A stretch of DNA of 64,000 nucleotides from a virus: positions 104,427-168,426 of the IMG/VR virus record IMGVR_UViG_3300042691_012617; one strand, given 5' to 3'. The notes beneath the pieces are model-generated. The model had not been told where the DNA came from and did not search any database. It saw only the letters and a program-made list of their open reading frames with translations. Position numbers and translations under genes: made by a program. Position 1 is the first letter of the stretch, and the number at the start of each line of letters is the position of its first letter. Shown here piece after piece: positions 2,160 through 61,865 of the stretch.

Positions 2160-2651
2160 TTAGCCGTTGGGCACGATCATCGCATGGACTTGAGTCAATC
2201 CATTTGGCAACTTGTTGGTCTCAACACGGAGTGCGAGACCATGACCGAGCATGGGGGTGATTCCGTCATCGTGATTTGTTCCGTAGGTCGTGCCGTCAGA
2301 ACCAAACACGCCACCGAAACGAACAAGAGGAAGAAGTTCCTCTGTCTGTGTTGAGAGACGCATGGCACAGTCACGATCCATATGGAAATCTAGACCGACC
2401 ATCTGAAGCCGACCCTGTGCCTGTTTTAGGGCAGACACAGGGTCGATGTATGGCTTCGCAGATAGCGCACCGAGATAGGTGTTGATACGAGCAATCGCTG
2501 CATTCGAAAGAGAGGACAGGTTGATGTCGGTGCCATCAAGTGCGTTGTCGCCATCCTGTGGACCTACCCGACCACGAATGCCCACCATGTCATATGCGGC
2601 ATGGGCAGCGGTTTCGTTGATTGTCTTTCTCAGTTCTTTGAACGATCTCAT
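2160..2651 (-). CDS. hypothetical protein with capsid-targeting-like leader
   Basis: Starts MRSFKELRKTINE; GGAG RBS upstream of ATG 2651. Confidence 0.7.
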   Translation of the reverse strand: MRSFKELRKTINETAAHAAYDMVGIRGRVGPQDGDNALDGTDINLSSLSNAAIARINTYLGALSAKPYIDPVSALKQAQGRLQMVGLDFHMDRDCAMRLSTQTEELLPLVRFGGVFGSDGTTYGTNHDDGITPMLGHGLALRVETNKLPNGLTQVHAMIVPNG

Positions 2652-2662
2652 GTTAACTCCTA

Positions 2663-3448
2663 TCAAGCGGTTGTACCAAAGGACACATAGAAGGTAGTGG
2701 CAGCAGTCAGTCCACCCGCACCATTATCGGTGACAAGAAGAGTTACTGTGCGAGGTCCGCTGTTTGCAGTTGCACCAACCTTGTTGATCTTGAACACGGC
2801 GATGTTGTTGTTGATGTCCGAAGTGGGGCCAAAGAAGGTTTCATAGATCGCGGAGGGAACACCAGTTAGGAGAGTGCTTCCTGAGATGATGTTACCCGCT
2901 GCGCCGAACTGATCGGTTACTTCAGAGAAAGAAAGATTCTGCGTGAAGTTAGCGTCATTTGCAACAACCTTGATGTAAGCGGTCTGACCACCACCAAACT
3001 GCAAGGTAGAGACTCCGTAACCATTTACGGCATAACTTCCATAATTGGCACCACTTCCAGTAGCAGAGTTGGCGAAAGAGAGACCAAGCCCATCAACACC
3101 ACCCGCAGTTGCGCTGTCGCCGCTGAACGGACATGTAAAGTACGGACGAGTGTTTGCCGCTTCTCCCGATGCAGCCGCGCCACCCGTAGCCGAAATGCGA
3201 CCCGCATAGGATGAACTCGTAACGCCCGTGATCGATGGATCGATTGGCATTGCAACGAGAAGTTCCATAAACGGAGTACTGAATGTCAGGGAGGTCGCAC
3301 CTCGGACACCCATCAACTGACCGCCAAGCGAAGTGCCGTCAAGTGGAAGTTCCCAACCCGCAACTGTGCGGATGCAGCGAATCTTTTGCGATGCGTTGAG
3401 CCATGTAGGCTTAGATTCCTCGCGGTCGTTTGCGTTCCAGTAAGACAT
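2663..3448 (-). CDS. putative virion structural/decoration protein
   Basis: G/S/T/A-rich, beta-prone 261 aa; late promoter ATAAATA at 3474-3480 and AGGAG RBS. Confidence 0.55.
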   Translation of the reverse strand: MSYWNANDREESKPTWLNASQKIRCIRTVAGWELPLDGTSLGGQLMGVRGATSLTFSTPFMELLVAMPIDPSITGVTSSSYAGRISATGGAAASGEAANTRPYFTCPFSGDSATAGGVDGLGLSFANSATGSGANYGSYAVNGYGVSTLQFGGGQTAYIKVVANDANFTQNLSFSEVTDQFGAAGNIISGSTLLTGVPSAIYETFFGPTSDINNNIAVFKINKVGATANSGPRTVTLLVTDNGAGGLTAATTFYVSFGTTA

Positions 3449-3476
3449 TTTTGTGGTTCTCCTCTGTGCTTTCTAT

Positions 3477-3914
3477 TTATCCGCCGATTTTCGGTGGGTT
3501 CTTGCCCTTGCCTGCTAGACCGTCATTGGTACCGAGACTCGACTTGGAAGTCGGCTTGGCAGTCTTGCTAGCAACAGAGGCGGGGGTTTCTAGTTCATTT
3601 GCCTTATGCGAAGGGTTCGAAACCTTTCCTGCGGGAACGACTGCTGTCTTTCCCTCAAGGTGCAGTTGAACTGCCTTGGCAAAGTCATTGGCTTCCTTGG
3701 TGGTACCACGGCAACCACAATCCTTCACAGCCTCATTGAAGAGATTGACAAGGGTGTTGCGACGATCCTCAAGGACGGTCTTTTCTGCAACGATCTTGGC
3801 GGCTTCAGCAGCCTTCTCTCCCAAGCAAGGGAGGATGTCTACATCGTTGCGATGTTCGTTTAGGAACTTGGTGATGTCAGCGACCACCTTAGAGTTGAAT
3901 GGATTGTGGAACAT
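3477..3914 (-). CDS. hypothetical late protein
   Basis: 145-aa ORF with AGGAG RBS and perfect TATAAATA upstream. Confidence 0.7.
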   Translation of the reverse strand: MFHNPFNSKVVADITKFLNEHRNDVDILPCLGEKAAEAAKIVAEKTVLEDRRNTLVNLFNEAVKDCGCRGTTKEANDFAKAVQLHLEGKTAVVPAGKVSNPSHKANELETPASVASKTAKPTSKSSLGTNDGLAGKGKNPPKIGG

Positions 3915-3936
3915 GGTGTCTCCTGTTGATACTGGT

Positions 3937-3944
3937 TATTTATA
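3937..3944 (-). promoter_or_regulatory. T4 late promoter (gp55-type)
   Basis: Exact TATAAATA on minus strand. Confidence 0.8.
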
Positions 3945-3952: not shown

Positions 3953-4213
3953 TTATCCGCCCTTTGCTTTCTTCCAAAGATCGGCATCAGCAGTCTTGCG
4001 GGTCTTGCCACCCACAATGAAAGAGTTCACACGGGCGAATGCCCATTGATGGCTTGTAGCACCAGGACGGTGTCCCCCCTTCCATGCAGCCATGCCCCTG
4101 TCATACACTTTCTTGAGGATGCCGTATGAAATGCCGCTAGCCTTTGCTTTTTTTTCCAAAGCGGCGATGCGAGCCTCTGTAATGTCTTGTTTCAGGGACT
4201 TGTAGTTTTTCAT
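3953..4213 (-). CDS. small basic DUF5824-like protein with capsid-targeting-like leader
   Basis: MKNYKSLKQDITEA..ILKKVYDRGMAAW..HRPGAT..QWAFARVNSF; ATGA overlap with upstream gene. Confidence 0.7.
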   Translation of the reverse strand: MKNYKSLKQDITEARIAALEKKAKASGISYGILKKVYDRGMAAWKGGHRPGATSHQWAFARVNSFIVGGKTRKTADADLWKKAKGG

Positions 4214-7200
4214 GACTTCTTCTCGGGGTTGTAGCCCCATACCTTGAGTGCGAGCAACTTGCGTGTTGGGCGACCCTTCTCGTCACGCATGCCGCCCTTG
4301 GCACCCTTCATGCGGTTGATGAAGTTAACTTGCTTACCCGCCCATTTCCAATCGTTTGGTGTCCACTTTTCCTTGGGGGTGTCAAGCATGCGGATGATGG
4401 CACGGGCAGAGTCACGACCACTTGTGATCTTCTTGCCTCCTGCTCCTGCCTTTCCTGCCTCCTTGCGAGACAGACCCGCTTCCTTGCCCTCGTCAGAATC
4501 AAGGAACGACTGAATCTCCTTGCCCGACATGTTTACGAGTTTCTGCCACTCCTTGTAGAGAGCCGACTTTTCCTCTTCCGACTTCTCTTCGCCAAGCCGC
4601 TCACGCTCTCCTGGAGTGTCCTTCTTATATGTCTTGACGATCTCGTCGCTGCCGACCAACAGCGGGCCTCTCTTGCCCATTGCAGTCCATTGCAGGACAG
4701 CATTGATCTTCTTCGATTCGTTCAGCCAGTTCTCTGTGGTATCGGTTTCCTCGCCGTGCATCTTCCACGCAGTAGCATAGAAGACTTCCTTCCAACGCTT
4801 GCCATATCGCTTTTGGAACTCCTTCTTGATCTTCTCTTTCTTGGAGAAGCGACGAGCAGGGCCGCTTGGAGGACTGACTTCGACCAAGAGGTAGTCAAAG
4901 TCTTCGTTGATGTCGGTCTTGGGCAATTCGCTGCCCATCTCGCTATCGCGGATTTCCTTCAGCAAATCAATGTATGAACGAGTCAATTGGGCAGCCTCCT
5001 GCATGTTACGAGTCAAGCAACGCTCCTCGTAGGCAATTGCCATACGAAGTTTGATTGCGTTTCTTTCATCAGATTCATCGATCTTGGACAGACGCTCCAT
5101 TGCATCGTCGTGTTCGTAGCCATTCTTGAGAGCCTTCAACTTACCCTTCTTGGCGAGTTTCTTGTACAGGGTGCTGTACTTCGATGGCTTGGTCTTGATG
5201 TCTTTCTCATCGGGATTGACAAACTCCCATGTCTGTGGATCGTCATCAGACATTGTCTTGCGCTTTTCAAGACGCTTCTTGCGAAGTTCGGCTTCTTTCT
5301 TGCTCAGACCCGCGACATACTTCTTGGGTAGACCCGAACCCTTGTCCTTTGGGCTTTCCTTTGTTTTACCTGTCTTGGTCTTGAACTCCTTGCCCTTCGT
5401 GACATCTGCTTCAATAAGGGGATTGCCTTCCATCTCATCGCCCATACCGAGCATGCTGAGGAAACTCATGGCACCCGACACCAACTTAGTGGCGTAGACA
5501 CCAATATCAATACCACCCGATTCCATGAACTTGTGGAATAGTTTGGCAATGATCTTGCCAATCTTGTTGTCTTGGGCAAACATTGAAAGGGTAACCCCTG
5601 CGCCCGAAGCCTTGTATGCCTGAAGCATGACTTCATCGCGGACACGCATGACTTCTCGCTTGAAATCTGCGGGTGGAATCTTGCCTTTCTTGTTCACCAA
5701 AGTGAAGACCTTTGCGCTGACTGCGGGAGTCTTCATGATCTCCGCAACAGCCTTCGCAGCATCTTTGACTGCGGTCTTTTCAACAAGTTCTTCCTCTTCT
5801 TCCTCGTCGCCCTTGCGCTTGGAGTTGATATCGGGCTGTGGGTAGATCGCTTCTGCGGGATCGACAACCATGCCTGTCTTACTGAGGAACTGCAATCCAA
5901 TCAGCACCTTTGTGGACATGTGACTGCGGTCGCCAAGGCTGAACTTGATGTTGGGATATTTCTTGCCATGGAACTCAATGTCCATGAGAACCACAAGACG
6001 CTTCTTCTCACCGATACCGCTCTTGACGGTGATGCGACTGACGATCTTTTTAGTGACCTTCTTGCCATTGGGCAACTTGAAGGTGACTGTGTGATCGCCG
6101 TTGTCCTTGATGTCCTCGGCATGGATCATGTTGTAGCCGCTGTTGCCCGTGTCGATCTTGGCGGTGTACTCCGCACCATCGATCTTCACTTCTTCACGCA
6201 CGGCTAGGTTGGAGAACAACTTCCAATGTGCCTTGTTGAGGATGTAATCGACCAAGTCCTCTACAAGTTCCTCCCCCTTGACATTGTTCTTGCCCTTGCC
6301 ATCCTCGTAGTAGCGGTAGTAAATGTTTCCGCTACCTGGGCTTGCATTCATCTCAATGATGTATGGCTTGCCCTGATTGATGACATGGTCGATACCGACA
6401 TAGTAGCACTTGCTTACCCTTGCAGCCCGCTCCACCAACTTTATTTCCTCGTCAGAAAGTTGGAAAGACCCGCCCTTTGAACCACGGGCGATATTCGTGC
6501 GGAAGTCCTTGGGTGCCTTGTCTCTCTTGGCACACGCAAAGATCTTTCCGTTCAGCACGATGCTGCGGACATCGTTCTTGAAGTCAGGTAGGAACTCCTG
6601 AATGATGACTTCTGCCTTGTACTTCCATAGCGTCTGAAGCACCGACTTCAGGCTCTCCATGCTTTCGATCTTGGAGACACCGATGCCTTCCGCGCCCGTG
6701 AGAGTCTTCACAATGATCGGGAACTTGCCACCGACTTCCTTGACCGCAGTTTCAATGTTCTCCTCGTTGGCAACGAATGCCGTGCGGGGGTGGGGCAACT
6801 CATGCTTCTTCAGGGCGATTGCCGTCTCCAACTTGTTGGCGCACAGTTCCATGCCACCACGCTCGTTGACCATGAACACGCCATTGTTCTGTAGGATGGT
6901 CATGATTGCGACTCCGATGTCGCTATTCATCACGCCACCGCGAACAATAGCAACCGTGTCGCTTGGATTGATGGTGCAGTCCTTGCCTTCACCGTCATAG
7001 TTCTTGATGACGATCTTCTTCGATGCAACGCTAGAAATGTCAACCTGAGCCTTGCTCGTCTTCACGGCATAGAACTCAATCTTTCGTCGCTTGCAGATCG
7101 CTTCCATCTTCTCAATGGTGTCGCTCAGATCCTTCTCCGACGATGTGAGGGCTAGGATGGTTACCTTGTCCTCTCCATCCTTGGCTTCGAAGATGTACTC

Positions 7201-7815
7201 TTCCTTGAGGTTCAATCCTTTTCGGACATCGTTGTACATCTTCTTCTTGAGAGCCATGTCGGTTCCCGCGACACCTGTGGCAAACTTCTTGAAGTCGCCA
7301 TCAAATGCTGCTGCTCTCATCTTGGAGGCAGACATGCCCTGAACGCCCTGTGCATCATCGTCACGGGCTTCCCCTGCCTGTACGACTTCGAAGTTGTCGA
7401 ATGAGTACTTGCGCTTCTTTGGATCGCGCTCGGCGGTTCTGCCCTTGTACTTTGCGATGTTCTTGAAATTCTCGACCTGATCGCTGCCTGCAATCATCAC
7501 GATGTTCTTGTAGCCCAAGTCACAGACATGCAGAACCGCAGAGTATGGATCTCCCGCCTTGTTCAGAGGGAACTTCGCCTTGGGGAAGAACTTCTTCAAG
7601 TACTCCACCTTCTGCTTATGTGTCAGGGGATTCTTTTTGGGATCCTGTGAGGTAGAGGCAAAGATGAAGTGATCGGCATTCCGCTTGGATGCCTCGGAGA
7701 GAACTTTGTCAACAAGCACACCGTGACCGATTGTCGGTGGGTTCATGCGACCGAATGCAATGACTACCGTGTCTTTCTTCGGTGCTTCCGTGAGGTGCTG
7801 TGCAAAGTTCTTCAC
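4210..7815 (-). CDS. multidomain polyprotein: cytidylyltransferase-like + RimK ATP-grasp ligase + RimK-associated retropepsin-like protease + DUF5824-like + DUF3140-like
   Basis: FGRMNPPTIGH/SASKMR (HIGH-superfamily NTase); FPIIVKTLTGAEGIGV, QEFL, DFRTNIARG, IIEMNASPG (RimK); AKIDTGN..VLIG (aspartyl-protease-like); WQKLVNMS..SGRDSARAI..LKVWGYNP (DUF3140-like). Confidence 0.85.
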   Translation of the reverse strand: MKNFAQHLTEAPKKDTVVIAFGRMNPPTIGHGVLVDKVLSEASKRNADHFIFASTSQDPKKNPLTHKQKVEYLKKFFPKAKFPLNKAGDPYSAVLHVCDLGYKNIVMIAGSDQVENFKNIAKYKGRTAERDPKKRKYSFDNFEVVQAGEARDDDAQGVQGMSASKMRAAAFDGDFKKFATGVAGTDMALKKKMYNDVRKGLNLKEEYIFEAKDGEDKVTILALTSSEKDLSDTIEKMEAICKRRKIEFYAVKTSKAQVDISSVASKKIVIKNYDGEGKDCTINPSDTVAIVRGGVMNSDIGVAIMTILQNNGVFMVNERGGMELCANKLETAIALKKHELPHPRTAFVANEENIETAVKEVGGKFPIIVKTLTGAEGIGVSKIESMESLKSVLQTLWKYKAEVIIQEFLPDFKNDVRSIVLNGKIFACAKRDKAPKDFRTNIARGSKGGSFQLSDEEIKLVERAARVSKCYYVGIDHVINQGKPYIIEMNASPGSGNIYYRYYEDGKGKNNVKGEELVEDLVDYILNKAHWKLFSNLAVREEVKIDGAEYTAKIDTGNSGYNMIHAEDIKDNGDHTVTFKLPNGKKVTKKIVSRITVKSGIGEKKRLVVLMDIEFHGKKYPNIKFSLGDRSHMSTKVLIGLQFLSKTGMVVDPAEAIYPQPDINSKRKGDEEEEEELVEKTAVKDAAKAVAEIMKTPAVSAKVFTLVNKKGKIPPADFKREVMRVRDEVMLQAYKASGAGVTLSMFAQDNKIGKIIAKLFHKFMESGGIDIGVYATKLVSGAMSFLSMLGMGDEMEGNPLIEADVTKGKEFKTKTGKTKESPKDKGSGLPKKYVAGLSKKEAELRKKRLEKRKTMSDDDPQTWEFVNPDEKDIKTKPSKYSTLYKKLAKKGKLKALKNGYEHDDAMERLSKIDESDERNAIKLRMAIAYEERCLTRNMQEAAQLTRSYIDLLKEIRDSEMGSELPKTDINEDFDYLLVEVSPPSGPARRFSKKEKIKKEFQKRYGKRWKEVFYATAWKMHGEETDTTENWLNESKKINAVLQWTAMGKRGPLLVGSDEIVKTYKKDTPGERERLGEEKSEEEKSALYKEWQKLVNMSGKEIQSFLDSDEGKEAGLSRKEAGKAGAGGKKITSGRDSARAIIRMLDTPKEKWTPNDWKWAGKQVNFINRMKGAKGGMRDEKGRPTRKLLALKVWGYNPEKKS

Positions 7816-9014
7816 GACTCGTTTACCTTTCTATTCTGTCTGCTGAACCGCAGACGATTGACCAACTTGACCGCCGTACCCGTTCTGACGATCACGATTC
7901 CTTCGGGGTCGGTGGGACGAATACCATCAGCATCCATGAAGAAGTGACCAAGGGCAGAGACCGCATACAACTTTCCAAGGATCATCTCCTTGACCTTTGC
8001 GATCTTGTTATGCAGTTCAAACATAGCATTGAACTGATCCTCGTAAGCATCGATGAAAGCGAGGATGTCGTTCATGGCGGTTTCCTTCGCCTGTCTCCCC
8101 TTCTCGGTCTTCAACTTATTTAGTTCCTTTTCCAACTTAGTCTTTACATACAGTTTCAGACCACTTGCGCTGAAACTGGTCAGACCGCCGTTGATCGTGC
8201 TGTTGATGTAGGGGAGCATCAGCGGCATGAGGTCTTTACGGGCAAGCAGGGGCTTCAGGAAAGGCTTTACCTTCTTGGCTAGCGTCTCGCACTCGGTGAT
8301 GCCCCGAAGCGCGGTATCGCCTTCCCCGCCCTTCAGGAGGGCAGGGGTGAGGTCGTAGATGTTCGGATCGGTGAACCAAACATCAGGATGCTGCTTGAGT
8401 TTGCTAGCGTTGAAGTTGAAGGTGGTTGCCTTCAAATCGGCAAGGGTCTTGCCTGAATACTCGGTGTGGAATGTAATTCCAATCTTTGCGGCTGCAATCC
8501 GCTTGCCGATTTCGCTGTCAGACGGGACGGTGTATAGAATCGTATTTGGTTGGAATCCAATATGTGGCTTTCCGCCAATCGTCAGACTCTTCTTACCATC
8601 AGCGGTGAACATCAGGTCGCCCTGAAGCACACCCTTGATTCCTACCTTTGGCAAATACTTCAGGCATTGAACCAACTTGTCTGCCAAGTCCTTGATGTCA
8701 AATCCCTTGCGAATCTCTTCTTCGGTATGAAACACCTTCTGCACTTGCTTGCCGAAGACACCCTTGATAGCGACGAAAAACTTCTTGTTCTCGGGATTGA
8801 TGCCGCAGATAACAGCAGGCTTTCCATCCCATTTTGTGGACATTCCTAGCGATGTGTTGCCCGTCTTGAGACTCTGAACGATGTCCTTCATGAAGGCAAT
8901 CGCATTGTCCAAGCCACTCCCACCCTTGAGGAGCATGAGATCTTCGATGTGATCTAGGTGCTTGTTCTGCTCAGTTTGCTCCATGAGAGGGAGCATTTGC
9001 TTAAATGACAGCAT
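7812..9014 (-). CDS. DUF6267-like protein with RNA-ligase-like nucleotidyltransferase motifs
   Basis: NKHLDHIEDL, KWDGKPA (KxDG), LQGDLMF, PEGIV, KLVNR; neighbour of cytidylyltransferase as in other T4-like phages. Confidence 0.7.
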   Translation of the reverse strand: MLSFKQMLPLMEQTEQNKHLDHIEDLMLLKGGSGLDNAIAFMKDIVQSLKTGNTSLGMSTKWDGKPAVICGINPENKKFFVAIKGVFGKQVQKVFHTEEEIRKGFDIKDLADKLVQCLKYLPKVGIKGVLQGDLMFTADGKKSLTIGGKPHIGFQPNTILYTVPSDSEIGKRIAAAKIGITFHTEYSGKTLADLKATTFNFNASKLKQHPDVWFTDPNIYDLTPALLKGGEGDTALRGITECETLAKKVKPFLKPLLARKDLMPLMLPYINSTINGGLTSFSASGLKLYVKTKLEKELNKLKTEKGRQAKETAMNDILAFIDAYEDQFNAMFELHNKIAKVKEMILGKLYAVSALGHFFMDADGIRPTDPEGIVIVRTGTAVKLVNRLRFSRQNRKVNES

Positions 9015-12168: not shown

Positions 12169-12178
12169 TGTGCATACC

Positions 12179-47476: not shown

Positions 47477-47806
47477 TTACTTGGCTCTACCGCCAAGGAA
47501 CTTCGTGTGGATAGGATCGCCCTTCAGATGAATGCCGACGATCTCATATCCGTTTGTTTTGAGTCCCGCAACATACGCATTTAAGTGTCGATTAAATTCG
47601 TACTTGTTGTCGGTCGTCTTCAGTTGCACGGGTGGGAACACCGCATTGACCGTGGTCTTCTCGCCCGTCTTTGGAAGAACGATTCGATAACGAACGACAG
47701 CCCTGATGTCATACTCATCATCAGGTTCGTATGCGTTCGATTTGTACTTGAAAACCTTGAACGAGTCGAATGTCGATTCGCTGATGTAGTCCTTGTATGA
47801 CTTCAT
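47477..47806 (-). CDS. hypothetical protein with capsid-targeting-like leader
   Basis: MKSYKDYISES. Confidence 0.7.
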   Translation of the reverse strand: MKSYKDYISESTFDSFKVFKYKSNAYEPDDEYDIRAVVRYRIVLPKTGEKTTVNAVFPPVQLKTTDNKYEFNRHLNAYVAGLKTNGYEIVGIHLKGDPIHTKFLGGRAK

Positions 47807-52098: not shown

Positions 52099-53682
52099 TC
52101 ACAGGGGGCGAACGCCTAGCCATGTGATGTTACGGGACGGGTCTCCCGCAGACTGCTTGCCGCTGTCGAAGACCATGCCTCCGCTGTTCGCGCTTGCCTG
52201 ACTGACCGTGAAGACCGCCTTCCCGCTGCGAACGAACTCCATGTTGTTCAGGGTGACTTGCCATGAGATGGAAGGACGGAAGTCCGAAGTGTCATGGTTC
52301 AATCCATAAGTGATGGCATCACAGAATATGTCGGATATGTACTTGCAGAAGTCCTTCCATTGGAAGGGCTGAATGTACTTGGCAGCATTCTGATTCAGGG
52401 GTGCCCGAACGCCGATGCCCGTCAACGGAATGCCATTGCTGTTCTGCACGAACTTCTGTACGAGATGTACATCGCGCTCAAGATCCTTCATCTCCTGCGC
52501 GGTAAGTTTGCCCTGACGCTTGCCATGCAACTTGCAGATGTCGTTCCAAAACTTCACGGGATCTTGGATCTTGAGTTTCATGACTTCCTTGATCATGAAC
52601 GGGTAGATCGTCTGTGCGCCACGGCTAGATGTCTTAAAGTAGGGAAGCATCGCAACCAAGAACTTGTTGCTGAGTACCTGTAGGTTCGTGAGGTTCTTTC
52701 CCATGGAGTGCAACTTGGGAAGGATGCTTGATCGCGCTCCCTTGTTGCTGCCGCTAGACATTGCCTTCGAAGACACCTTGAGGTTACCGATCTCGCCTGT
52801 CTTCAGCGTACCTCTGAGATATGAGTCATAGGATGTATTCGTGTTGTCGGTTGGCACCGCGAAGAATGTCATCGTGCTGAAGTTCGGGAAGTTGCCGATG
52901 CTCTTGCCGCCCCAAATAAGAAACGGATATGACAACTCCGATATGAGATAGATGCCAAACTTCGCCTTGTCCTGTGGTGCCATGATCTCGCCAACCTCAG
53001 ACCAATCGAACTGTACTGCACCACCGTTGAAGAACTCCTCGGTCGCCTTCAGCACCGCAGGATCCTTGAGGATCGCATAGGAACTGCCCTTCATGTTTGT
53101 GAGGATACGACTCTTCAATTCCTCAAGGCCCTTGAAGATGTAGTGAGGCACATCGTTGTCGCTGATGCGGATCGCCTCTGTCCTATGCCCTTCAAGGAAG
53201 TGAGAAGCAGTCAGGGTCTGCAACTGGCTACCCGCCTTGGTGCGTCTCTTAAATCCCGCGTCCGAGAACTCGGAGTTGTTAATCTTCAGGGGATCGCTGT
53301 CCTTGGGCAAGTGTCGCCCGACGATGATCGTCTTGCTCTTCGAATCCTTCAGCGTGACAAGAATGATTCCCTTGCTCTTGGTCTTCGCTTCATTGGTGTC
53401 GATTGGTCCAATGAACAGATTGACATTGATCAGAGCCTTCAGGAACTCGGGGTTCTCACCCGCAGACAATCTTGCTTTCTCTTTTGAATGCAAGCCACCG
53501 CTAGAAAGATATCGGGGGACGAACACCCAATTCGTCGCAGCCCAAACGCCGCCTTCCTTGTCGCTGAACAGAATCTCTCCCGCAGCAACGCGGTCGGGCT
53601 GAACGCCCTTCGACTCCGCAAGCATGCGCTCGGTTGTCTCTCTGCGTGTCTCCTCGGTGACTCGTTCGATGAATTTCTTCAT
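52099..53682 (-). CDS. large hypothetical protein with capsid-targeting-like leader; possible PD-(D/E)xK-like motif
   Basis: MKKFIERVTEE..MLAES; SE..PTDNTNTSYDS..KVSSK. Confidence 0.65.
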   Translation of the reverse strand: MKKFIERVTEETRRETTERMLAESKGVQPDRVAAGEILFSDKEGGVWAATNWVFVPRYLSSGGLHSKEKARLSAGENPEFLKALINVNLFIGPIDTNEAKTKSKGIILVTLKDSKSKTIIVGRHLPKDSDPLKINNSEFSDAGFKRRTKAGSQLQTLTASHFLEGHRTEAIRISDNDVPHYIFKGLEELKSRILTNMKGSSYAILKDPAVLKATEEFFNGGAVQFDWSEVGEIMAPQDKAKFGIYLISELSYPFLIWGGKSIGNFPNFSTMTFFAVPTDNTNTSYDSYLRGTLKTGEIGNLKVSSKAMSSGSNKGARSSILPKLHSMGKNLTNLQVLSNKFLVAMLPYFKTSSRGAQTIYPFMIKEVMKLKIQDPVKFWNDICKLHGKRQGKLTAQEMKDLERDVHLVQKFVQNSNGIPLTGIGVRAPLNQNAAKYIQPFQWKDFCKYISDIFCDAITYGLNHDTSDFRPSISWQVTLNNMEFVRSGKAVFTVSQASANSGGMVFDSGKQSAGDPSRNITWLGVRPL

Positions 53683-55725: not shown

Positions 55726-56493
55726 TCACGCTTTTGCGTAGTTTGCAAGGGGATCGAATTGCTTTGTTTTGTCGAGCCAAATCATGTTCGCATGCTTCAT
55801 GTTGTCGCGGGGAGAGTATGGGATGGTGATGACTTCTCCTGCGTTACGCTTCGCCATGCCGACATAGATCCGACCCCGCGCATCCTTCGCCGTGGACTTG
55901 GTACCGATAAGGATGCCCTTGGGCTTGTGCTTCGAAACGAATGCCTTGCTGATGTCAAGTACGGTAGCCAACACCATCGCTGCATCCGCTCCACTCATGA
56001 TGCCCAAGTCCTCGTCGCCGCCATTTATGCTGCGGTCATAGTCCCAATACCAACGAGACCTCGGACCTCCACTCATGACGGGGCGTGGGCGAGTTGAATA
56101 CTTCAGGATGGAATCCATTCTCTGAAAGTAGAGTTCATAGACCTTGCCCATGTCGGAGTCGTTGAGGTTCGACTTTTCCTTGAGCGGTGCGTACAGACTG
56201 CTTTGATATGAGAGAGTATGAAACCCGACCTCGTACACCACACCAGGCAACGGAGTCGCATCCTTCTTGTTGTTCAAGAGCGGTCTGTCTTGTTCGTCCT
56301 TGCCCGTGATCTTGAGACCGTTTTCCTCATAGAACTTTTCGATTCCGTTTCCGTCCATGGGACATGGGAGCATCTTGCCACCGCGCACCTTTCCGAAAGC
56401 GAATCGATAGATGTCTAGACCACCACCCGTGGAGAACTCGTTCCATGGGTGAGCCTTGTCAAACAGTTCCGCGAGATATGCGTTGAACTCCAT
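55726..56493 (-). CDS. hypothetical protein with capsid-targeting-like leader
   Basis: MEFNAYLAEL. Confidence 0.7.
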   Translation of the reverse strand: MEFNAYLAELFDKAHPWNEFSTGGGLDIYRFAFGKVRGGKMLPCPMDGNGIEKFYEENGLKITGKDEQDRPLLNNKKDATPLPGVVYEVGFHTLSYQSSLYAPLKEKSNLNDSDMGKVYELYFQRMDSILKYSTRPRPVMSGGPRSRWYWDYDRSINGGDEDLGIMSGADAAMVLATVLDISKAFVSKHKPKGILIGTKSTAKDARGRIYVGMAKRNAGEVITIPYSPRDNMKHANMIWLDKTKQFDPLANYAKA

Positions 56494-57899
56494 CACCATT
56501 CCTGCACCTCTTCCTTTGGATCGAACACCTTCTTGCCGATCATGAGTCCGCTGTAGAGAAGGTTGTATGTGTACTTCGACTTCGTGGGATTGCCGCTAGG
56601 CTTGAACTTGTTCTTCGCCTTGTTGAACTCCTGCACGGACGGGATCTTGCCTTGGCTCATCGCGGTCTCATACTCTTTTATGATTCCATCGATGTCCTGA
56701 CGGAGCGACACGACACGATTGACCAACTTTGCCTTCCTCTTCGGATCCTCAATCAGGCTCATGCTTGTGCTGTACGCGCCCCATGTGAGCAACGCCATGA
56801 CAAGAGTTCCCATCTCGTCCATCTTCACCCCGCCAAGCCCGATCTTCTTCAGGTGATCGGGGATCCACGGTTCGGCAAGATTGTCCTTGACCTTTCGCTG
56901 AAGATCAGCGACAACGATCTCTGCGACAGCCTTGCACTTTGCGGTCTTGGTCAGGCTGTTGAAGGAAGCCTTGTCCCGCATCGCATTCAATGCAGCGCGT
57001 TCATTGGTCGCCGCGATCAGGAAGGAAGCGAACGCATCCTCAATCTCTGATGCCGCGCCTTGGAAGTATGCGTTCCATTCCGCATCGCTTGTGTAGTAAG
57101 CCTTGCGGGTCTCAGGTGTGCTGTTCGGATCCCATGATGCTTTGATGCCCTTCTCAATGTTCCCTGGTCTGTCGCTGCTCGACTTGTATCGGATGTCATC
57201 AAGGAAGTGGATGTACTCATGGATGAAGATGTCTCGGAGGAACATCAGTTCCTGCTCAAGTCCCTCAAGCCACTTGTTCATCGGACGAACCATTGCTTGC
57301 TTCGACTTGCCGCTGAACTTCGCCTTCATCGCATCGCGCAGGGCTTGGTGCAGCGGAGTGTCCTTGCCCAACGACAGGTGGCTGAGGTTGTAGAACTCAA
57401 GTGTGGGATTGACCTTGGTCTGCTTGCCTGAGATGTAGACTCCCTTGAAAGACATCGCCCCGCTTCCGCGTGGATAACCGCGAAGCGTGATCAGCATCTT
57501 CACCATGTTGCTGCTCGGTGTCATCTTGTCGAAGTCGCTAGGCTTGATGCTCGGTGGGAGGAAGACCTGTGCGGCATCCCTGATGGTGTATGCAAGAGTC
57601 ATCTGCCCCTGCGTCAGGACTGACATGAGCATCTTCTTGTCATCGAACTGCTTCCGCATCGAATCGGTGAGCGAGTTCGCCAAGTCATTGATGGCGAACT
57701 CATAAGATACGATGTCCTTGGTAGATGGATCTGTTCCCTTGCCACCCGATGTGTGCTTGTTGATGAAGTCATTGACACCTTTGGTCGCCATGACCATGAG
57801 GTTCTTCGTGAACCTGTCGAACGACTTGGCTGCGGCATCGCGCATCGAACGGTCAAGTTCGCGCTCAAGCAGCAGGGCAAGTTCGTGGTATGACTTCAC
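56493..57899 (-). CDS. HExxH zinc-metalloprotease-like protein with capsid-targeting-like leader
   Basis: MKSYHELALLLE; IFIHEYIHFLD..YYTSDAEWNAY. Confidence 0.7.
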   Translation of the reverse strand: MKSYHELALLLERELDRSMRDAAAKSFDRFTKNLMVMATKGVNDFINKHTSGGKGTDPSTKDIVSYEFAINDLANSLTDSMRKQFDDKKMLMSVLTQGQMTLAYTIRDAAQVFLPPSIKPSDFDKMTPSSNMVKMLITLRGYPRGSGAMSFKGVYISGKQTKVNPTLEFYNLSHLSLGKDTPLHQALRDAMKAKFSGKSKQAMVRPMNKWLEGLEQELMFLRDIFIHEYIHFLDDIRYKSSSDRPGNIEKGIKASWDPNSTPETRKAYYTSDAEWNAYFQGAASEIEDAFASFLIAATNERAALNAMRDKASFNSLTKTAKCKAVAEIVVADLQRKVKDNLAEPWIPDHLKKIGLGGVKMDEMGTLVMALLTWGAYSTSMSLIEDPKRKAKLVNRVVSLRQDIDGIIKEYETAMSQGKIPSVQEFNKAKNKFKPSGNPTKSKYTYNLLYSGLMIGKKVFDPKEEVQEW

Positions 57900-58426
57900 A
57901 GTCCCGATCCCTTCGGCAGAAAGATGATGAGTGCCTTGGGTTCGATGCCATGTATGAACGCCATGTCCATGCGGGTGTTCCCTGCGAGGATGCGATCCCG
58001 ATAGCCCAATGCGATCTCCTTCATCTCCTTCTCGGCATGATAGTCGGAAGACTCCGCTGTGGGGCGAACGATGATCGGCATATCCATGGGCTTGCCTGAC
58101 AGCATGGCTTCCTTCATGGCGTTGAGGGTGTCCTCGTTGCGGTACTGCGGGTACGAGCGATAGGTCTTAATGAGGTTCAGCAGTTCCTTCATGTTCCTCG
58201 TATGAGACCTGTTGGCGATGTAGTAGTCGTGCCCCTTGGTGATCGTCCGCACGATGCCTTCCTTCGCCGCCTTGAGGAATGACTCCACGGTGGGGAACAC
58301 ATCCTTGTCCAACTCATGGACGAGGTGCTTCTTGTATTCGATCTCATACTCCTGCTTGAGCATGGCGACCTTGGGGCGAACCCAATTGCCCTTCGCTTCG
58401 GTGATGTGCTGTGAGAAAGACTTCAT
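57896..58426 (-). CDS. ParB/Srx-like protein with capsid-targeting-like leader
   Basis: MKSFSQHITEA; MPIIV..ILAGNTR. Confidence 0.6.
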   Translation of the reverse strand: MKSFSQHITEAKGNWVRPKVAMLKQEYEIEYKKHLVHELDKDVFPTVESFLKAAKEGIVRTITKGHDYYIANRSHTRNMKELLNLIKTYRSYPQYRNEDTLNAMKEAMLSGKPMDMPIIVRPTAESSDYHAEKEMKEIALGYRDRILAGNTRMDMAFIHGIEPKALIIFLPKGSGL

Positions 58427-58716
58427 CTCTTCTTCCGTCCTTGGCAATGCGCCCGTTGTGAGAATCCCTTCGGGTTGTTGCAGTTGATCGACTTCTTGTA
58501 CTTCGCAGTCCAATCCTCACCGATCTTGTACTTCTTGAGGATGGCGTTGCGCTTGGCTTGCAGTTCCTTCTGCCGTGGAGAACTCGGCATCGTCTTCAGG
58601 ATGAGTATCGTCAGACGGTTCGCCTCCTTGCGATCCTCGGGCGACATGACAGCCCAAGGATCCTTGAAGTCCTTGAAGTCATGCGAACCTTCCATGAATT
58701 GCAGGAACGATTTCAT
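58423..58716 (-). CDS. small protein with capsid-targeting-like leader and Cys-containing C-terminal module
   Basis: MKSFLQFMEG; EDWTAKYKKSINCNNPKGFSQRAHCQGRKK. Confidence 0.72.
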   Translation of the reverse strand: MKSFLQFMEGSHDFKDFKDPWAVMSPEDRKEANRLTILILKTMPSSPRQKELQAKRNAILKKYKIGEDWTAKYKKSINCNNPKGFSQRAHCQGRKKR

Positions 58717-59792
58717 GTGAAGTCCTTCACCAATTGCTTGAACACCTTCGTCTTGGCAAAGGCATCTGCGCCCTTCACACCAAGGCGGCTGATGGCGCGG
58801 TTATAGACATACATCCTTGCATTGTCACCCATGTTTCGTGTTGATGAGTTCAAGACAATGATGTCCTCTATGCTGCTCACCTTTACATAGACCGTGACAG
58901 GGAGCGGGGCATTGCCGACACGGATGACCTCTCGCTCAGGCTTCGCTCCCTTGCCGTATCCCGACACTTGCTTGACCACATCGGGACTCAGGAGAGTGTC
59001 GCTCCTCTTGAGGTTCACTTCGAACACCACGGCGATTGGATTCTCGACACTAGACATGTTGGTGTCGCTGAAGTCCTCTGCGGTGCGCCACTCGTCAGAC
59101 CATGACTGCGCCTCGTAGCGGCTCTTGTAGGTTCCCTTGGCGACAAGCCATTCGTTCTTGCCGATCTTCTTGACCTCTCCCGTGAAGTCATACTTGGAGA
59201 CCACGGCGGTGGTTCTTGACACGCCACGGTACGCCTTGCCGCTCCATGCCGCCCACGGGGCACGGCTCTTGCAAGCAACGATCTGAGCGAAGATGTTCGT
59301 CATCTTCATCTTGCGACCGCCCTGTGATTCGAACCACTCATCGAACGCTTCCTTGATCTCCTGCAACTTGGTGATCCACTTGGCAGACGCATCAGGGATC
59401 TCGCCCTTGATCAAATCGATGAACCTGTTGGGCTTGGGGTCGCTGAGGAGGTCGCAGATGGTGTAGGGATTGGCGAGTACCTTCTTCTCGTCGGCTTCCG
59501 CCTTGCGGTAGATCGCATCGGTCTTCAACTCCCGTTTGATCTCCTTGCCTATGTCCTTGAGGTGCGGGATGACCACCTTGAAGTTGGAGTTCTGATAGGA
59601 GGGAGAAGTGTAGTCGTTCAACGACAGCATCTTGATCCTGTGCTTCAGGTTCTTGATCGTCTGCTTGGAAAGATTGGGTGTCTTGATAGCCTTCTTCAGG
59701 GCTTCGATGGCATCCTTGCGAAGACGCTCTGCCTCAATGGCAGCGGGCTTCGGGCCCTTGGCTTCGGTGATGTGGGCAAGGAAGGATTGCAT
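58713..59792 (-). CDS. ADP-ribosyltransferase-like protein (R-S-E clade) with capsid-targeting-like leader
   Basis: MQSFLAHITEA; AYRGV, QSWS..A..F, PEREV; CTAAATA at 59798-59804. Confidence 0.68.
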   Translation of the reverse strand: MQSFLAHITEAKGPKPAAIEAERLRKDAIEALKKAIKTPNLSKQTIKNLKHRIKMLSLNDYTSPSYQNSNFKVVIPHLKDIGKEIKRELKTDAIYRKAEADEKKVLANPYTICDLLSDPKPNRFIDLIKGEIPDASAKWITKLQEIKEAFDEWFESQGGRKMKMTNIFAQIVACKSRAPWAAWSGKAYRGVSRTTAVVSKYDFTGEVKKIGKNEWLVAKGTYKSRYEAQSWSDEWRTAEDFSDTNMSSVENPIAVVFEVNLKRSDTLLSPDVVKQVSGYGKGAKPEREVIRVGNAPLPVTVYVKVSSIEDIIVLNSSTRNMGDNARMYVYNRAISRLGVKGADAFAKTKVFKQLVKDFT

Positions 59793-59811
59793 CCCGATAT
59801 TTAGGATATGA

Positions 59812-60252
59812 TCACTTCATGACTTCGCCCGTGACGGGTTCGAACCGCCCACGCATCTTCTCAATGGCTTCGGGGGGAACGCCATGGATCGAACCATAGT
59901 TGCCCGTCATGCGGATCACCCGCACCGTCCAACCCAACTCTTTGGCGAGTTCGATGTACGGCTGCATCTCCCACTTCATGGTGAATGTATTGGAGACCGC
60001 GACTGCCTTGTGCTTGCCACTCGCCATCGCCCTGCGGGTACGGGCAAGGCAGTCACCATGGGCATCCTTCAACTTGGTCGGGTCGAAGTCATACTTGCCG
60101 CCCCTGTAGAAGTACTGGTCGGCTTCGAAGTGCGCCGATGCCTGAACGAGGGTCTTCGCATGGGTTGACTTCCCCGAACCAGGGAGTCCACGGACGAGGT
60201 ACAGAATGTTTCCAATCGATTCGTTCATGATGAAGTTCTTGAAGTCGCGCAT
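59812..60252 (-). CDS. AAA_33/polynucleotide-kinase-like P-loop protein with capsid-targeting-like leader
   Basis: MRDFKNFIMNES; RGLPGSGKST, EADQYF, VSNTF..WE..PY, HGVP. Confidence 0.85.
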   Translation of the reverse strand: MRDFKNFIMNESIGNILYLVRGLPGSGKSTHAKTLVQASAHFEADQYFYRGGKYDFDPTKLKDAHGDCLARTRRAMASGKHKAVAVSNTFTMKWEMQPYIELAKELGWTVRVIRMTGNYGSIHGVPPEAIEKMRGRFEPVTGEVMK

Positions 60253-60368
60253 TCTAATCTCCCAATCCGTACTTGTCAATAGCCCACCATTCGGTCATGT
60301 CCATGGAGGATGCCAATCCATCGATGCTCATCCCCCGTCCCTCCTTCTCACTAGGGACTGCCGCGCCC

Positions 60369-61067
60369 CTAGAGCGAGTTCCGCACCGTCTCCCATCGAT
60401 TCTCATCGACGGCAATTCGCTTCTCCGTATTCGGAGCATTCCCAACCTTCGTCAGTTCGAAAAAACTCGGCGGCTGTCCCTTGAACGACATCAGGATCTC
60501 GTCCATCGCCTTCTTCATGGAGTAGCCGCTCGTTCCTTCGATGGACAGCAACTGACCGCCGTAGACCTTGAGCCATCCCTTGGAGTATGCGACCATTTGG
60601 ACATGGTAGGCGAGATCCATGCTGCCGTTGCTCAGAGCCGAACGAACCGTTTGGACTTCCCTGTCGGTGATCGGAATGTTGAGATTCTTGAAGCGATGCT
60701 CCGCTTCCTTCCGAAGACCCGCATTGAGTTCATCCTCCGTGATGCCAAAGCGAGGAAACTGGTTCACGATCTTCGTGACATGGTAGTAGCCATCGAAAGT
60801 AAACCATTGCAACGAAGGGTGCCACCATCCCGTGAAGATGTCGCTCTTGTTCGCCCATGGGTAGGAAGCACGGGCGGGTGTCGCGGGGATCTGCGGAGTG
60901 GGTACGGGCTTGGAGACGAAGGTGCGACGAACAGGCTTCTTGACAGGTGCTGCCTTGACCTTGGACTTCGCCGCTGCCTTCGCGCTTGATGCCTTGGGCT
61001 TGGCGATCCTTGTCTTGGTCGCTGTCGCTTCCTGAATCGATTGCAATAGATCGAAGTAGGTCTTCAT
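60369..61067 (-). CDS. hypothetical protein with capsid-targeting-like leader and K/A/P-rich tail
   Basis: MKTYFDLLQSIQEA. Confidence 0.72.
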   Translation of the reverse strand: MKTYFDLLQSIQEATATKTRIAKPKASSAKAAAKSKVKAAPVKKPVRRTFVSKPVPTPQIPATPARASYPWANKSDIFTGWWHPSLQWFTFDGYYHVTKIVNQFPRFGITEDELNAGLRKEAEHRFKNLNIPITDREVQTVRSALSNGSMDLAYHVQMVAYSKGWLKVYGGQLLSIEGTSGYSMKKAMDEILMSFKGQPPSFFELTKVGNAPNTEKRIAVDENRWETVRNSL

Positions 61068-61076
61068 GCCATCACA

Positions 61077-61865
61077 TCACTTCTGATACTTCTTCAGTTC
61101 TCTGATGACCGTCGAAAGGTCTTTCATGATCTCCATGTTGCCATGCTTCGAAGGACTCATTGTTTTCTTATGGACTGCCTCAAGGCTATAGATCAGACCC
61201 TGAAGGAAGTCACGCTGCTGTGCATGCTTCTGCCTGAGGGAACCCACGATCTGTAGAAGATAGGAATGAACATCGAACTTTCCCACCCATGCGACATTCG
61301 TCGTTGCCTTCTGAATGTTCGTCGCCATGTCATCAAGGTCAGTCCAATACCTTCCGAGATCCGCTGCCTCGCTTACAAGAGTCTCTTCCTTTCTGATGGA
61401 AGGAAACCCTAGAGAAGACAGTAGATCCGAAGCAGCCTTCTTGTTGGCTTCTTCTGCCGCCTTGAGAACTTCATTCTTGTCCAACGAGGCTACCTTGCCC
61501 ACGACACGAAGACCGCTCCCACCTCTTCCGACTGCATAGAGGGTGTATCCCTTGCCATCAATCGCCTTGCGTACTTGGAATGAAGAACCCTTCATCATGA
61601 ACTTCTTGTCGAGCGGAACATCGGACTCGTCCAGTTCAACCTCTTCCTTTTGCCACGGCTGTCCGATGTTCTTGGGGGTGAGGGTGACGAACACCTTGCC
61701 CATCTTGAGACCGCCATGCTCCTTTGCCTTCTTGAGGCATTGCTGCTTGCTGCCACGATAGATGATCTTGTTGTCCACGACGAGGGCATACCCGACCTTG
61801 GTGAGTTCTGCCTCGCTGAGGGTCTTGCGCTGAATGCCGTCCCAATTCTCGTTGAATGACTTCAT
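61077..61865 (-). CDS. three-module polyprotein with capsid-targeting-like leader
   Basis: MKSFNE..LSEA; linkers KEEVELDES and KEETLVSEA; AGGAG RBS; CTAAATA at 61883-61889. Confidence 0.72.
   Translation of the reverse strand: MKSFNENWDGIQRKTLSEAELTKVGYALVVDNKIIYRGSKQQCLKKAKEHGGLKMGKVFVTLTPKNIGQPWQKEEVELDESDVPLDKKFMMKGSSFQVRKAIDGKGYTLYAVGRGGSGLRVVGKVASLDKNEVLKAAEEANKKAASDLLSSLGFPSIRKEETLVSEAADLGRYWTDLDDMATNIQKATTNVAWVGKFDVHSYLLQIVGSLRQKHAQQRDFLQGLIYSLEAVHKKTMSPSKHGNMEIMKDLSTVIRELKKYQK

Follow-up and report, generated by a model that had tools for sequence, protein, structure and literature searches.

The window (64,000 nucleotides, positions 104,427 to 168,426 of the IMG/VR virus record IMGVR_UViG_3300042691_012617) raises the question of why about 20 late genes of one uncultured T4-like phage begin with the same kind of short peptide. 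All 20 N-termini listed in a preliminary description of the window are found at their positions on the minus strand, but the genes at 7815 and 57899 begin with GTG and not with the ATG reported. The proteins are unrelated as claimed, showing no pairwise similarity among the 20 after removal of the leader. The shared N-terminus is interpreted, with a probability of about 0.78, as a capsid-targeting sequence (CTS) of the T4 internal-protein type that is cut by a gp21-type protease and loads about 20 late proteins. The kind of system is already known from T4; its scale and its enzyme cargo are new.

When the 20 leaders are aligned on Glu, this residue occupies P1 and a hydrophobic residue (I/L/V/M/F) occupies P3 in every one, with H/Y/F at P4 in 10, F/Y at P7 in 10 and A/S/G at P1' in 12. 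Leaders are typically 10-14 residues long (full range 9 to 18, both anchors kept), and the 10-residue form has the consensus M-K-[S/T]-[F/Y]-x-x-[H/Y/F]-[I/L]-x-E. The strict regular expression of the preliminary description matches 13 of the 20 listed N-termini at gene starts, all inside the window, versus 0.9 expected in shuffled N-termini; in the remaining 104 kb of the genome it hits no gene start, and it hits none of 930 internal Met positions. The exact type MKSFxxHIxE begins 64 proteins (30 clusters, 97 IMG/VR contigs), and of 81 exact matches to the DNA pattern in IMG/VR, 74 are at the start of an ORF.

The leader genes, all on the minus strand (a slash marks the putative cut), start with a 163-aa protein (2160..2651, MRSFKELRKTINE/T, mature pI 5.6) that has no matches in Pfam or PHROG, a DUF5824 protein (3953..4213, MKNYKSLKQDITE/A, 86 aa, pI 10.7), a multidomain fusion of 1201 aa (4210..7815, MKNFAQHLTE/A, GTG start) and a DUF6267 protein (7812..9014, MLSFKQMLPLME/Q, 400 aa, own TAAATA box). 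Next are an acidic polysaccharide deacetylase (22092..22865, MAQAFRSFLSE/E, 257 aa, pI 5.5, TAAATA box 6 nt before ATG), an NT5C-type 5'(3')-deoxyribonucleotidase (38726..39253, MKSFLHHINE/A, 175 aa, pI 9.4, own TAAATA box) and a phrog_5268 protein (40342..41403, MKTFFQLRDEHIQE/E, 353 aa, pI 9.3, own TAAATA box). A 309-aa protein (41595..42524, MTKSFNQYLTE/R, pI 9.5; MKTFNTYLNE in an orthologue) is translationally coupled to one of 100 aa (42521..42823, MKSFKQYIHE/S, TAAATA box 6 nt before ATG; MKSFLQHVME in an orthologue). Beyond these lie a 1067-aa protein of bead-on-a-string modules (44061..47264, MMNEFQRRILAE/A, pI 9.1) and proteins of 109 aa (47477..47806, MKSYKDYISE/S, pI 9.5), 527 aa (52099..53682, MKKFIERVTE/E, pI 9.5), 255 aa (55726..56493, MEFNAYLAE/L, pI 9.2; the L058 orthologue starts MKSFRGHITE/VFDTTHSW), 468 aa (56493..57899, MKSYHELALLLE/R, GTG start, pI 9.4; the L006 orthologue has an ATG start and MKTFGNWLLLE), 176 aa (57896..58426, MKSFSQHITE/A, pI 9.3) and 97 aa (58423..58716, MKSFLQFME/G, pI 10.2; MQSFRQHILE/A in the L007 orthologue). 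The gene of a 359-aa protein (58713..59792, MQSFLAHITE/A, pI 9.7, TAAATA box 5 nt before ATG) is the first of five leader genes in a coupled operon; an AAA_33 P-loop kinase (59812..60252, MRDFKNFIMNE/S, 146 aa, pI 9.6), a 232-aa protein (60369..61067, MKTYFDLLQSIQE/A, pI 10.0) and a long-form leader protein of 262 aa (61077..61865, MKSFNENWDGIQRKTLSE/A, pI 9.5, own TAAATA box and Shine-Dalgarno sequence) complete the set. The cargo had been described as enzymatically diverse, which holds for about six of the 20, but no function could be recognised for the remaining 14. A second class, of longer leaders ending in DI-x-x-[F/M]-L-N-E, overlooked earlier, begins at 3914 and 35034 in two paralogues (3477..3914, minus strand, MFHNPFNSKVVADITKFLNE/H, 145 aa, own TAAATA box, L008 orthologue MIIMKDTFNNPLVNDIKKMLTE/Q; and 34630..35034, minus strand, MKDPFNNPLVNDIRNMLNE/Q, 134 aa, TAAATA box 6 nt before ATG).

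The leader is a flexible add-on outside the fold: in an AF2 model of the nucleotidase (38726..39253), residues 1-10 have a pLDDT of 57 compared with above 90 for the domain, and a short helix is predicted at leader residues 4-8. Orthologues in related phages (38-85% identity) keep the motif in varied form, and the leader is absent from homologues outside T4-type phages, cellular ones included, in the NT5C and AAA_33 kinase families, as had been expected for cellular homologues. NT5C homologues from non-T4-like phages are acidic and leaderless, and DUF6267 proteins start with MAKNTHLEHLEDD, without a leader, in cyanophages and with MKSFKTHIAE/AVNTHMIHIEDM in other IMG/VR lineages. Mature pI is at least 9.1 in 17 of the 20 tagged proteins versus 19% of other genes (IPII and IPIII of T4 have pI 9.3 and 9.5), the remaining three tagged proteins being acidic. 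Kinase homologues with the extension (n=21) have a median pI of 9.2, versus 6.3 for those without it (n=84; Fisher p 3e-10).

The genome has genes for a gp21-type protease (Peptidase_S77, E 1.3e-33) and for a gp22-like, acidic scaffold protein. By alignment, the maturation site of its capsid protein is Y-L-R-E/SAPTN, and its leaders, ending in [H/Y]-[I/L]-x-E/[A/S], resemble that site (Y-L-R-E/S). The corresponding capsid-protein sites are Y-L-K-E/AAPTN in the relative G001, F-L-A-E/APTN in S-CRM01 and L-L-T-E/APT in S-CREM2, the latter two phages having leaders with the ending F-L-x-E. The gp23 cut site of T4 (AQAFGSFLTE/A) is nearly equal to the deacetylase leader (MAQAFRSFLSE).

Virion-associated enzymes (cytidylyltransferase/NMNAT-like, Ser/Thr kinase, SAM hydrolase) are reported from proteomes of the T4-like cyanophages S-CREM2, S-SZBM1, S-SCSM1 and S-CRM01. 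The passages on them examined in PMC10665884 and PMC9146016 give neither a leader nor a packaging mechanism. The published virion proteomes report no N-terminal processing; their authors caution that abundant enzymes might co-purify, and contamination is allowed for in PMC10665884. Among 84 non-structural genes of S-CREM2, all three strict-leader proteins (SAM hydrolase, kinase and the cytidylyltransferase ORF154, MKNFSSFLTE) were detected in the virion, whereas the leader is missing from all 71 genes that went undetected (p=0.003). The sole virion enzyme of S-SZBM1 is likewise a cytidylyltransferase with a leader (gp140, MRFRQFIIE/A), and the leaderless DUF6267 homologue adjoining its gene is absent from the virion list; the virion kinase of S-CRM01 corresponds to g130, with the leader MISFDQFLSE. 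Thus, the tagged enzymes are those found in purified virions of cultured relatives. Since S-CREM2 ORFs 17, 155, 156, 165, 174 and 176 were virion-detected although leaderless, the tag cannot be the sole route into the particle. The capsid-targeting reading is supported by every check that could be run: enrichment, homologues, protease gene, cut-site likeness and the virion proteomes of relatives.

For the present phage we infer physical packaging, binding to the core, cleavage after Glu and injection. As the prohead assembles, aromatic residues 4 and 7 of a short amphipathic helix formed by the leader would bind the scaffolding core; the gp21-type prohead protease would next cut at the [I/L]-x-E site, leaving the mostly basic mature proteins enclosed in the head alongside the DNA, from where they would probably enter the next host cell. 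The tag would act as a transferable address for about 20 late-expressed proteins that are unrelated to one another, among them the nucleotidase, the P-loop kinase, the deacetylase, the 1201-aa nucleotidyltransferase/RimK ligase/protease fusion and the 1067-aa module chain.

The leader might instead be an amphipathic docking helix for some other late partner, such as a chaperone, a membrane or replication-factory site or an oligomerisation partner, its likeness to the T4 CTS being convergent. This is unlikely, though it deserves more weight than the explanations considered below. Leader genes are located among replication and nucleotide-metabolism genes and not in the head module, many relatives of the deacetylase keep only the F-x-x-F half without the [I/L]-x-E protease site, basic pI is shared by leaderless cyanophage homologues of DUF6267 and the cytidylyltransferase, and T4 gp61.1, for which the literature yielded no report of packaging, has a CTS-like start (MKTFKEFIKE). 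Docking would not, however, need the invariant P1 Glu, hydrophobic P3 and usually small P1' that mark a protease site; the leader also ends like the capsid-protein maturation site, and it is the tagged enzymes that occur in virions of three cultured relatives.

Every leader gene belongs to a TAAATA late operon; of 62 TAAATA boxes, 42 precede a gene start by no more than 50 nt. Most leader genes had been placed behind late promoters, which is only partly correct: eight have their own (C/A)TAAATA box, but the remaining 12 follow such a box at a distance of one to three tightly packed genes. The motif is enriched among the genes of late operons. It is missing from early genes and, as had been stated, from replication genes, sugar genes and genes behind sigma70-like promoters; the 22 genes on the plus strand at the left end lack it too. 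In five leader genes just 5-9 nt separate the TAAATA box from the ATG, implying mRNAs that are nearly leaderless, and the shared start could on this account be a translation feature of such mRNAs or a cassette for recombination that shuffles 5' ends, with no functional peptide. This is very improbable: nine genes without the peptide leader share the short spacing, elsewhere among the leader genes Shine-Dalgarno sequences are normal or translation is coupled, and leader length varies with both anchors retained. Synonymous codons differ at conserved residues and the 30 nt upstream are 26% identical, the random level, which argues that the constraint acts on the peptide.

Just as little likelihood attaches to a RiPP-like recognition tag for a modifying enzyme, for which the RimK-type ATP-grasp ligase and protease of the 1201-aa protein would be the candidate. 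Both domains are present in the genome and Glu termini are the site of RimK action, but a radical-SAM gene is absent from the genome, the RimK protein bears the leader itself, and S-CREM2 and S-CRM01 have leader families with no RimK fusion annotated in their examined regions. Chance resemblance among MK-rich N-termini with frequent [ILV]-x-E triplets, although loose forms of the regular expression match many random positions, is refuted by the gene-start, shuffle and internal-Met counts and runs against both the conservation of the motif in orthologues and the placement of IMG/VR matches at ORF starts.

Like the present leaders, the CTS of T4 (IPI, IPII, IPIII and Alt; removed by gp21) is a propeptide at the N-terminus, about 10 residues long (MKTYQEFIAE), with K2, S/T3, F/Y4, an aromatic residue at 7, I/L8 and E10 in common. 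Mutagenesis of the T4 CTS assigned residues 4 and 7 to targeting and 8 and 10 to processing (PMC9026906), the same positions that are constrained in the 10-residue leader. Both phages have a gp21-family protease, a gp22-like scaffold, mostly basic mature proteins and late expression, and Alt is a precedent for an enzyme as cargo. The present phage has about 20 tagged genes versus four to five in T4, scattered through a replication and accessory region instead of a small hyperplastic locus. Its putative cargo, in contrast to that of T4, extends to proteins as long as 1067 and 1201 aa, to enzymes of recognisable metabolic function and to a chain of modules whose acidic linkers recur, and none of the mature parts is homologous to T4 internal proteins or Alt. 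Cyanophage virion enzymes include a homologous cytidylyltransferase with the same kind of leader, but the present phage has many more tagged genes, of different families. The giant phages phiKZ, 201phi2-1 and SPN3US also have many internal head proteins cut after Glu (at [A/S/G]-x-E) by a T4-gp21-related protease, and their propeptides are thought to direct incorporation into the head (PMC5694885); unlike the present leaders, these mostly exceed 100 residues, have a small P3 in place of I/L and include no common short portable leader. The Dar anti-restriction proteins of phage P1 (DarA, DarB, Hdf, Ulx; PMC9024508, PMC12810830) include large capsid-packaged enzymes that are injected and act before phage gene expression, but their incorporation is hierarchical and protein-dependent, and they are not known to share a short N-terminal leader cut by a gp21-type protease.

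The 1201-aa protein comprises cytidylyltransferase-like, RimK ATP-grasp, Zn_protease (RimB-like), DUF3140 and DUF6321 domains, with candidate internal joints at KEEYIFE/A (residue 210) and EEEEEELVE/K (residue 679); its N-terminal, cytidylyltransferase-like domain shares about 35% identity with its virion-detected homologues, S-SZBM1 gp140 and S-CREM2 ORF154. The modules of the 1067-aa protein are joined by about nine acidic linkers, (K/G)E[E/S]VEVxE/, which also escaped the preliminary description; the motif E[ES]V[ED], present seven times here, is found no more than once in any other protein. The prohead protease would probably cut the chain apart at the E-[E/S]-V-E-V-x-E linkers. Relatives reshuffle the protein at the linker joints, where the module gain and loss in L008 also falls, this relative retaining modules 1-250, 489-553 and 811-908 with boundaries at linkers.

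The observation that about 20 unrelated ORFs in the window share a short N-terminal leader, M-x-[S/T/N/D]-[F/Y]-...-[I/L/V/M]-x-E, is confirmed and extended. All 20 N-termini listed in the preliminary description are present (two of the 20 start with GTG), and after removal of the leader no pairwise similarity is detectable among the proteins. Alignment of these leaders (9-18 residues) on the terminal glutamate (P1, the residue before the proposed cut) gives Glu at P1 and I, L, V, M or F at P3 in 20/20, H, Y or F at P4 in 10/20, F or Y at P7 in 10/20, and A, S or G at P1', the residue after the cut, in 12/20. Seven leaders of 10 residues conform to M-[K/Q]-[S/N/K]-[F/Y]-x-x-[H/Y/R]-[I/L/V]-x-E, with F or Y at position 4 in all seven, and H or Y in six and R in one at position 7. 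The conserved residues use varying codons and the 30 nt upstream are only 26% identical; thus, selection acts on the leader peptide. The best-supported reading, to which we assign a probability of roughly 0.8, is that the leader is a capsid-targeting sequence of the T4 type, removed by a protease and carried by a large cargo that consists in part of enzymes; packaging, cleavage and injection are predicted for this phage.

The capsid-targeting sequence (CTS) of T4 is a textbook curiosity, known on a handful of small proteins. In the T4 record, IPII and IPIII start with MKTYQEFIAE, and the maturation site of gp23 is ...KIAQAFGSFLTE↓AEIGG (the arrow marks the proposed cut). Targeting depends on CTS residues 4 and 7 (Mullaney and Black) and processing on residues 8 and 10, Asp10 blocking cleavage but not targeting (review PMC9026906); the same review already suggested that T4-like phages may incorporate varied proteins via the CTS. 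The constrained positions of the leader are the same four: the aromatic residue 4 and the H or Y at position 7 correspond to the targeting half, the [I/L]-x-E end corresponds to the gp21 processing site, and the leader length is that of a short CTS propeptide (10-19 residues). The deacetylase leader (22092..22865), MAQAFRSFLSE↓E, is almost identical as a string to the gp23 maturation site. By alignment, the capsid protein is cut at Y-L-R-E↓SAPTN here, Y-L-K-E↓AAPTN in the relative G001, F-L-A-E↓APTN in S-CRM01, F-L-S-E↓AAPTN in Melnitz and L-L-T-E↓APT in S-CREM2, and the leader ends track these sites ([H/Y]-[I/L]-x-E here; F-L-x-E in S-CRM01 and S-CREM2). [quoted passage not shown] T4 also encodes an uncharacterised 54-aa protein, gp61.1 (L011:1467-1631 of the T4 record, minus strand), starting with a near-perfect CTS (MKTFKEFIKE), for which no report of packaging was found; primase gene 61 and helicase gene 41 flank it in the genome, which is also where leader genes cluster here and in cyanophages.

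The window is the final 64 kb of a 168,426-bp IMG/VR record (93% complete, GC 0.51), with nearly all window genes on the minus strand. The record represents a T4-like phage, with a DNA polymerase 49% identical to those of marine cyanomyoviruses and the gene order of Kyanoviridae (gp43, uvsX, gp41, DUF6267, cytidylyltransferase ... gp61). Outside the window it encodes a gp21-type prohead protease (gene at genome 16320-16964; PF03420 match at 16467-16904, E 1.3e-33) with His71 and Ser124 invariant among 61 homologues, adjoined by the genes of an acidic 365-aa gp22-like scaffold protein and the major capsid protein; a gp21-family protease and a scaffolding core protein, the companions of a CTS, are both present in the same genome. 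Docking of the protease with residues 1-40 of the NT5C nucleotidase cargo scored 0.00, which weighs neither way.

Structure and homology indicate that the leader is an add-on. In an AlphaFold2 model of the NT5C nucleotidase (38726..39253; 59-sequence alignment), the mean pLDDT is 94 and that of residues 1-10 is 57; a short helix (residues 4-8) is followed by coil to strand 1 at residue 16, leaving the leader outside the fold. For most 10-residue leaders, the helical hydrophobic moment is above that of their own shuffles. Cyanophage homologues of the 400-aa DUF6267 protein (7812..9014) begin with MAKNTHLEHLEDD, exactly where homology starts after the 12-residue leader here, and leader-bearing DUF6267 proteins are present in other uncultured lineages. 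The comparison of homologues proposed in the preliminary description agrees: the NT5C proteins of BiPBO1, Xoo-sp13, Atu_ph04 and ORM_20 have no leader, with a pI of 5.2-6.6 in the three with an annotated gene, whereas those of the T4-type marine phages Melnitz and HTVC008M have leaders and a pI of 9.1-9.7. Homologues of the AAA_33 kinase (59812..60252) that start at the P-loop strand (n=84) have a median pI of 6.3, 5% of them exceeding 9, versus 9.2 and 71% for those with an N-terminal extension, mostly M[KQR][TDS]F..F[IV]xE (n=21; Fisher p 3e-10). In this genome, 17/20 mature cargo proteins have a pI of at least 9.1, versus 19% of other genes. Basic pI is weakened as proof of packaging by the cyanophage DUF6267 and cytidylyltransferase homologues, which are leaderless yet basic. 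Deacetylase family members are all acidic, and in the distant ones the leader is reduced to its F-x-x-F targeting half, the cleavage half having been lost. An exception to the pairing of leader and basic pI is the NT5C homologue of Flavobacterium phage immuto (L016), with an N-terminal extension (...DLLLEE↓) and an acidic pI of 5.5. A 231-aa protein (53969-54664, minus strand) starts with MHTFRGHTK, which, like the N-termini of the distant deacetylase relatives, has the targeting half (here F4 and H7) and no [I/L]-x-E.

Virion proteomes of cultured relatives point in the same direction. According to PMC10665884, CsCl-purified S-CREM2 virions contain 52 proteins, among them the SAM hydrolase ORF6, the kinase ORF14 and the cytidylyltransferase ORF154, and the authors consider contamination possible. 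When the N-termini of the 84 genes annotated in the two non-structural regions of S-CREM2 were all scored, a strict leader was present in exactly three: ORF6 (MKDFDSFLEE), ORF14 (MKRFDAFLTE) and ORF154 (MKNFSSFLTE). All three are virion-detected, and the leader is found in 0/71 undetected genes (Fisher p=0.003); two near-matches, ORF13 (MKDLHSFLTE) and ORF12 (internal ...LRFASFMAE↓A), are also virion-detected. Some non-structural proteins detected in the same data have no leader, so other routes or contamination exist. In S-SZBM1, the only enzyme among 30 virion proteins (PMC9146016) is the cytidylyltransferase gp140, which starts with MRFRQFIIE↓A; its neighbour gp141, a leaderless DUF6267 homologue, is absent from the virion list. 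The N-terminal domain of the 1201-aa fusion (4210..7815) shares approximately 35% identity with each of gp140 and ORF154; a proposed match of S-SZBM1 gp139 to the C-terminal part of the fusion was dropped for lack of BLAST similarity. S-CRM01 virions contain a putative Ser/Thr kinase stated to be 32% identical to ORF14 (PMC10665884), and g130 of S-CRM01 (MISFDQFLSE) aligns with ORF14 over 797 residues at 32.0% identity; because the stated identity is reproduced, the virion kinase is apparently g130. A four-gene cassette encoding a small protein, a Ser/Thr kinase, a small protein and a large nuclease-like protein is syntenic between S-CREM2 (ORF12-15, L124:7704-13331) and S-CRM01 (g131-g128, L004:7230-10954); 4/4 products are virion-detected in S-CREM2, and 3/4 start in leader fashion in both phages. 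A lead from phiM12 proved uninformative on virions, only a 94-aa domain being in common. The literature was searched for accounts of CTS families having expanded in cyanophage-like phages, and none was found. The leader could possibly be a docking helix for a partner other than the capsid, but such a helix would explain neither the invariant protease-site half nor the virion data.

The leader genes belong to late operons. Of 62 TAAATA occurrences in the genome, 42 precede a gene start on the same strand by at most 50 nt (2.7% of positions qualify), and 41 of those 42 follow a C or A; as with T4-type late promoters, the element is also found upstream of scaffold, tail and baseplate genes. The earlier claim that late promoters precede most leader genes holds for operons only, not for individual genes: eight of the 20 have their own box, and between a box and each of the other 12 the distance is one to three genes, tightly packed or overlapping. 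In 14 genes genome-wide, structural and non-structural, only 0-7 nt, and mostly 5-7, separate the box from the start codon (window positions 22865, 35034, 37425, 39253, 42823 and 59792), which implies leaderless or nearly leaderless late mRNAs. That the peptide is a translation signal for such mRNAs is unlikely, and this explanation was rejected, because genes lacking the peptide show the short spacing equally, and a Shine-Dalgarno sequence or translational coupling is present in many leader genes. A 97-aa protein with its own TAAATA box (53679-53972, minus strand) has a classical signal peptide, MKSMIVSLSLLLSTPAVAA↓E, and its gene immediately precedes the leader gene at 53682, with an overlap. 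A recognition tag for a radical-SAM maturase is rejected, the genome having no radical-SAM gene. Chance is excluded by the genome-wide enrichment that had been proposed as a check: under the strict regex, 13 gene starts match inside the window and none in the remaining 104 kb, versus 0.9 in shuffled N-termini and 0 at 930 internal methionines. The leader is indeed missing, as described previously, from the replication, sugar and sigma70-driven genes, and also from the left-end plus-strand genes. The sugar-gene run (11239-20547, minus strand) comprises about 10 leaderless genes with epimerase/dehydratase-like N-termini (GGAGFIGSH) and other sugar-metabolism-like genes, and has a single internal TAAATA box at 16067.

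Orthologues on related IMG/VR contigs (38-85% protein identity) keep the leader and vary it within the motif, as in NT5C (MKSFLHHINE, MKSFTHHIKE, MRDFQTHINE, MRDFHQHINE). A degenerate DNA pattern for the 10-mer matches 7-8 times per genome in two relatives, 7 times in S-CRM01 and 5 times in T4 (ipII and ipIII among them), versus 0-2 for reversed-pattern controls. MKSFxxHIxE in its exact form is present on 97 IMG/VR contigs, with 74/81 matches at ORF starts; its 64 complete proteins form 30 clusters and have a median mature pI of 9.4.

The 1067-aa leader protein (44061..47264) is apparently a polyprotein with protease-cleavable joints. It has about nine acidic linkers, (K/G)-E-[E/S]-V-E-V-x-E, 60-110 residues apart, each terminating in a [V/I/L]-x-E site; the core linker motif, present seven times here, never occurs more than once in another protein of the genome. 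In the 457-aa orthologue on the related contig L008, modules 1-250, 489-553 and 811-908 are retained and their boundaries fall at linkers, the joints at which relatives swap modules, and another L008 gene combines a similar leader with different modules. Evidence is weaker for the 1201-aa fusion, with only two candidate joints beside Pfam domains, KEEYIFE↓A (residue 210) and EEEEEELVE↓K (residue 679). An internal-joint regex requiring an aromatic P4 had zero matches. No PDB relatives were found for the 1067-aa, 309-aa and DUF6267 proteins, the 359-aa protein matched only viral hypothetical clusters in the ESM atlas, and PHROGs for cargo of no assigned function were unknown-function families only.

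The kind of system is already known from T4; what is new is its scale, a cargo that includes enzymes and a polyprotein, the association with a charge shift and a connection to unexplained cyanophage virion enzymes. Within 64 kb, one gene in five has a T4-type address, large enzymes and a cleavable module chain being among the products, and the address recurs on dozens of protein families and approximately 100 uncultured viral contigs. The chances are about even that in T4-like, cyanophage-related (Kyanoviridae-like) phages a leader of about 10 residues is a general, evolvable address for head loading, protease trimming and injection of enzymes. Any gene gaining the leader would have its product loaded into the head, where the protease would trim the leader and cut polyproteins into modules; the injected cargo would be a large, lineage-specific enzyme set, acting ahead of any phage gene expression and here including a RimK-type ligase/protease/nucleotidyltransferase, a dNMP nucleotidase, a kinase and a deacetylase. 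If so, the address would explain the unexplained "virion-associated enzymes" of cyanophage proteomes, the leader offering a sequence-level mechanism for the kinases, cytidylyltransferases and SAM hydrolase in purified virions. It would also be a simple predictor of injected proteins, early-acting in host takeover or anti-defence, in abundant aquatic phages, and a natural packaging tag for engineering.

Two paralogues in the window (3477-3914 and 34630-35034, minus strand), behind TAAATA boxes, share a different leader of about 20 residues, M..[ND]PFN..[VL]V.DI..[FM]LNE↓, which is conserved in L008 and may represent a second class of protease-processed propeptide. The window also encodes 11 tRNAs, including tRNA-Ile(tat) at 9053-9127, immediately upstream of the leader gene at 9014, and a tmRNA identified by ARAGORN (36664-37006, minus strand; tag peptide ANKQTRRYALAA) inside a tRNA cluster (36116-36658, 38033-38106 and 39274-39424).
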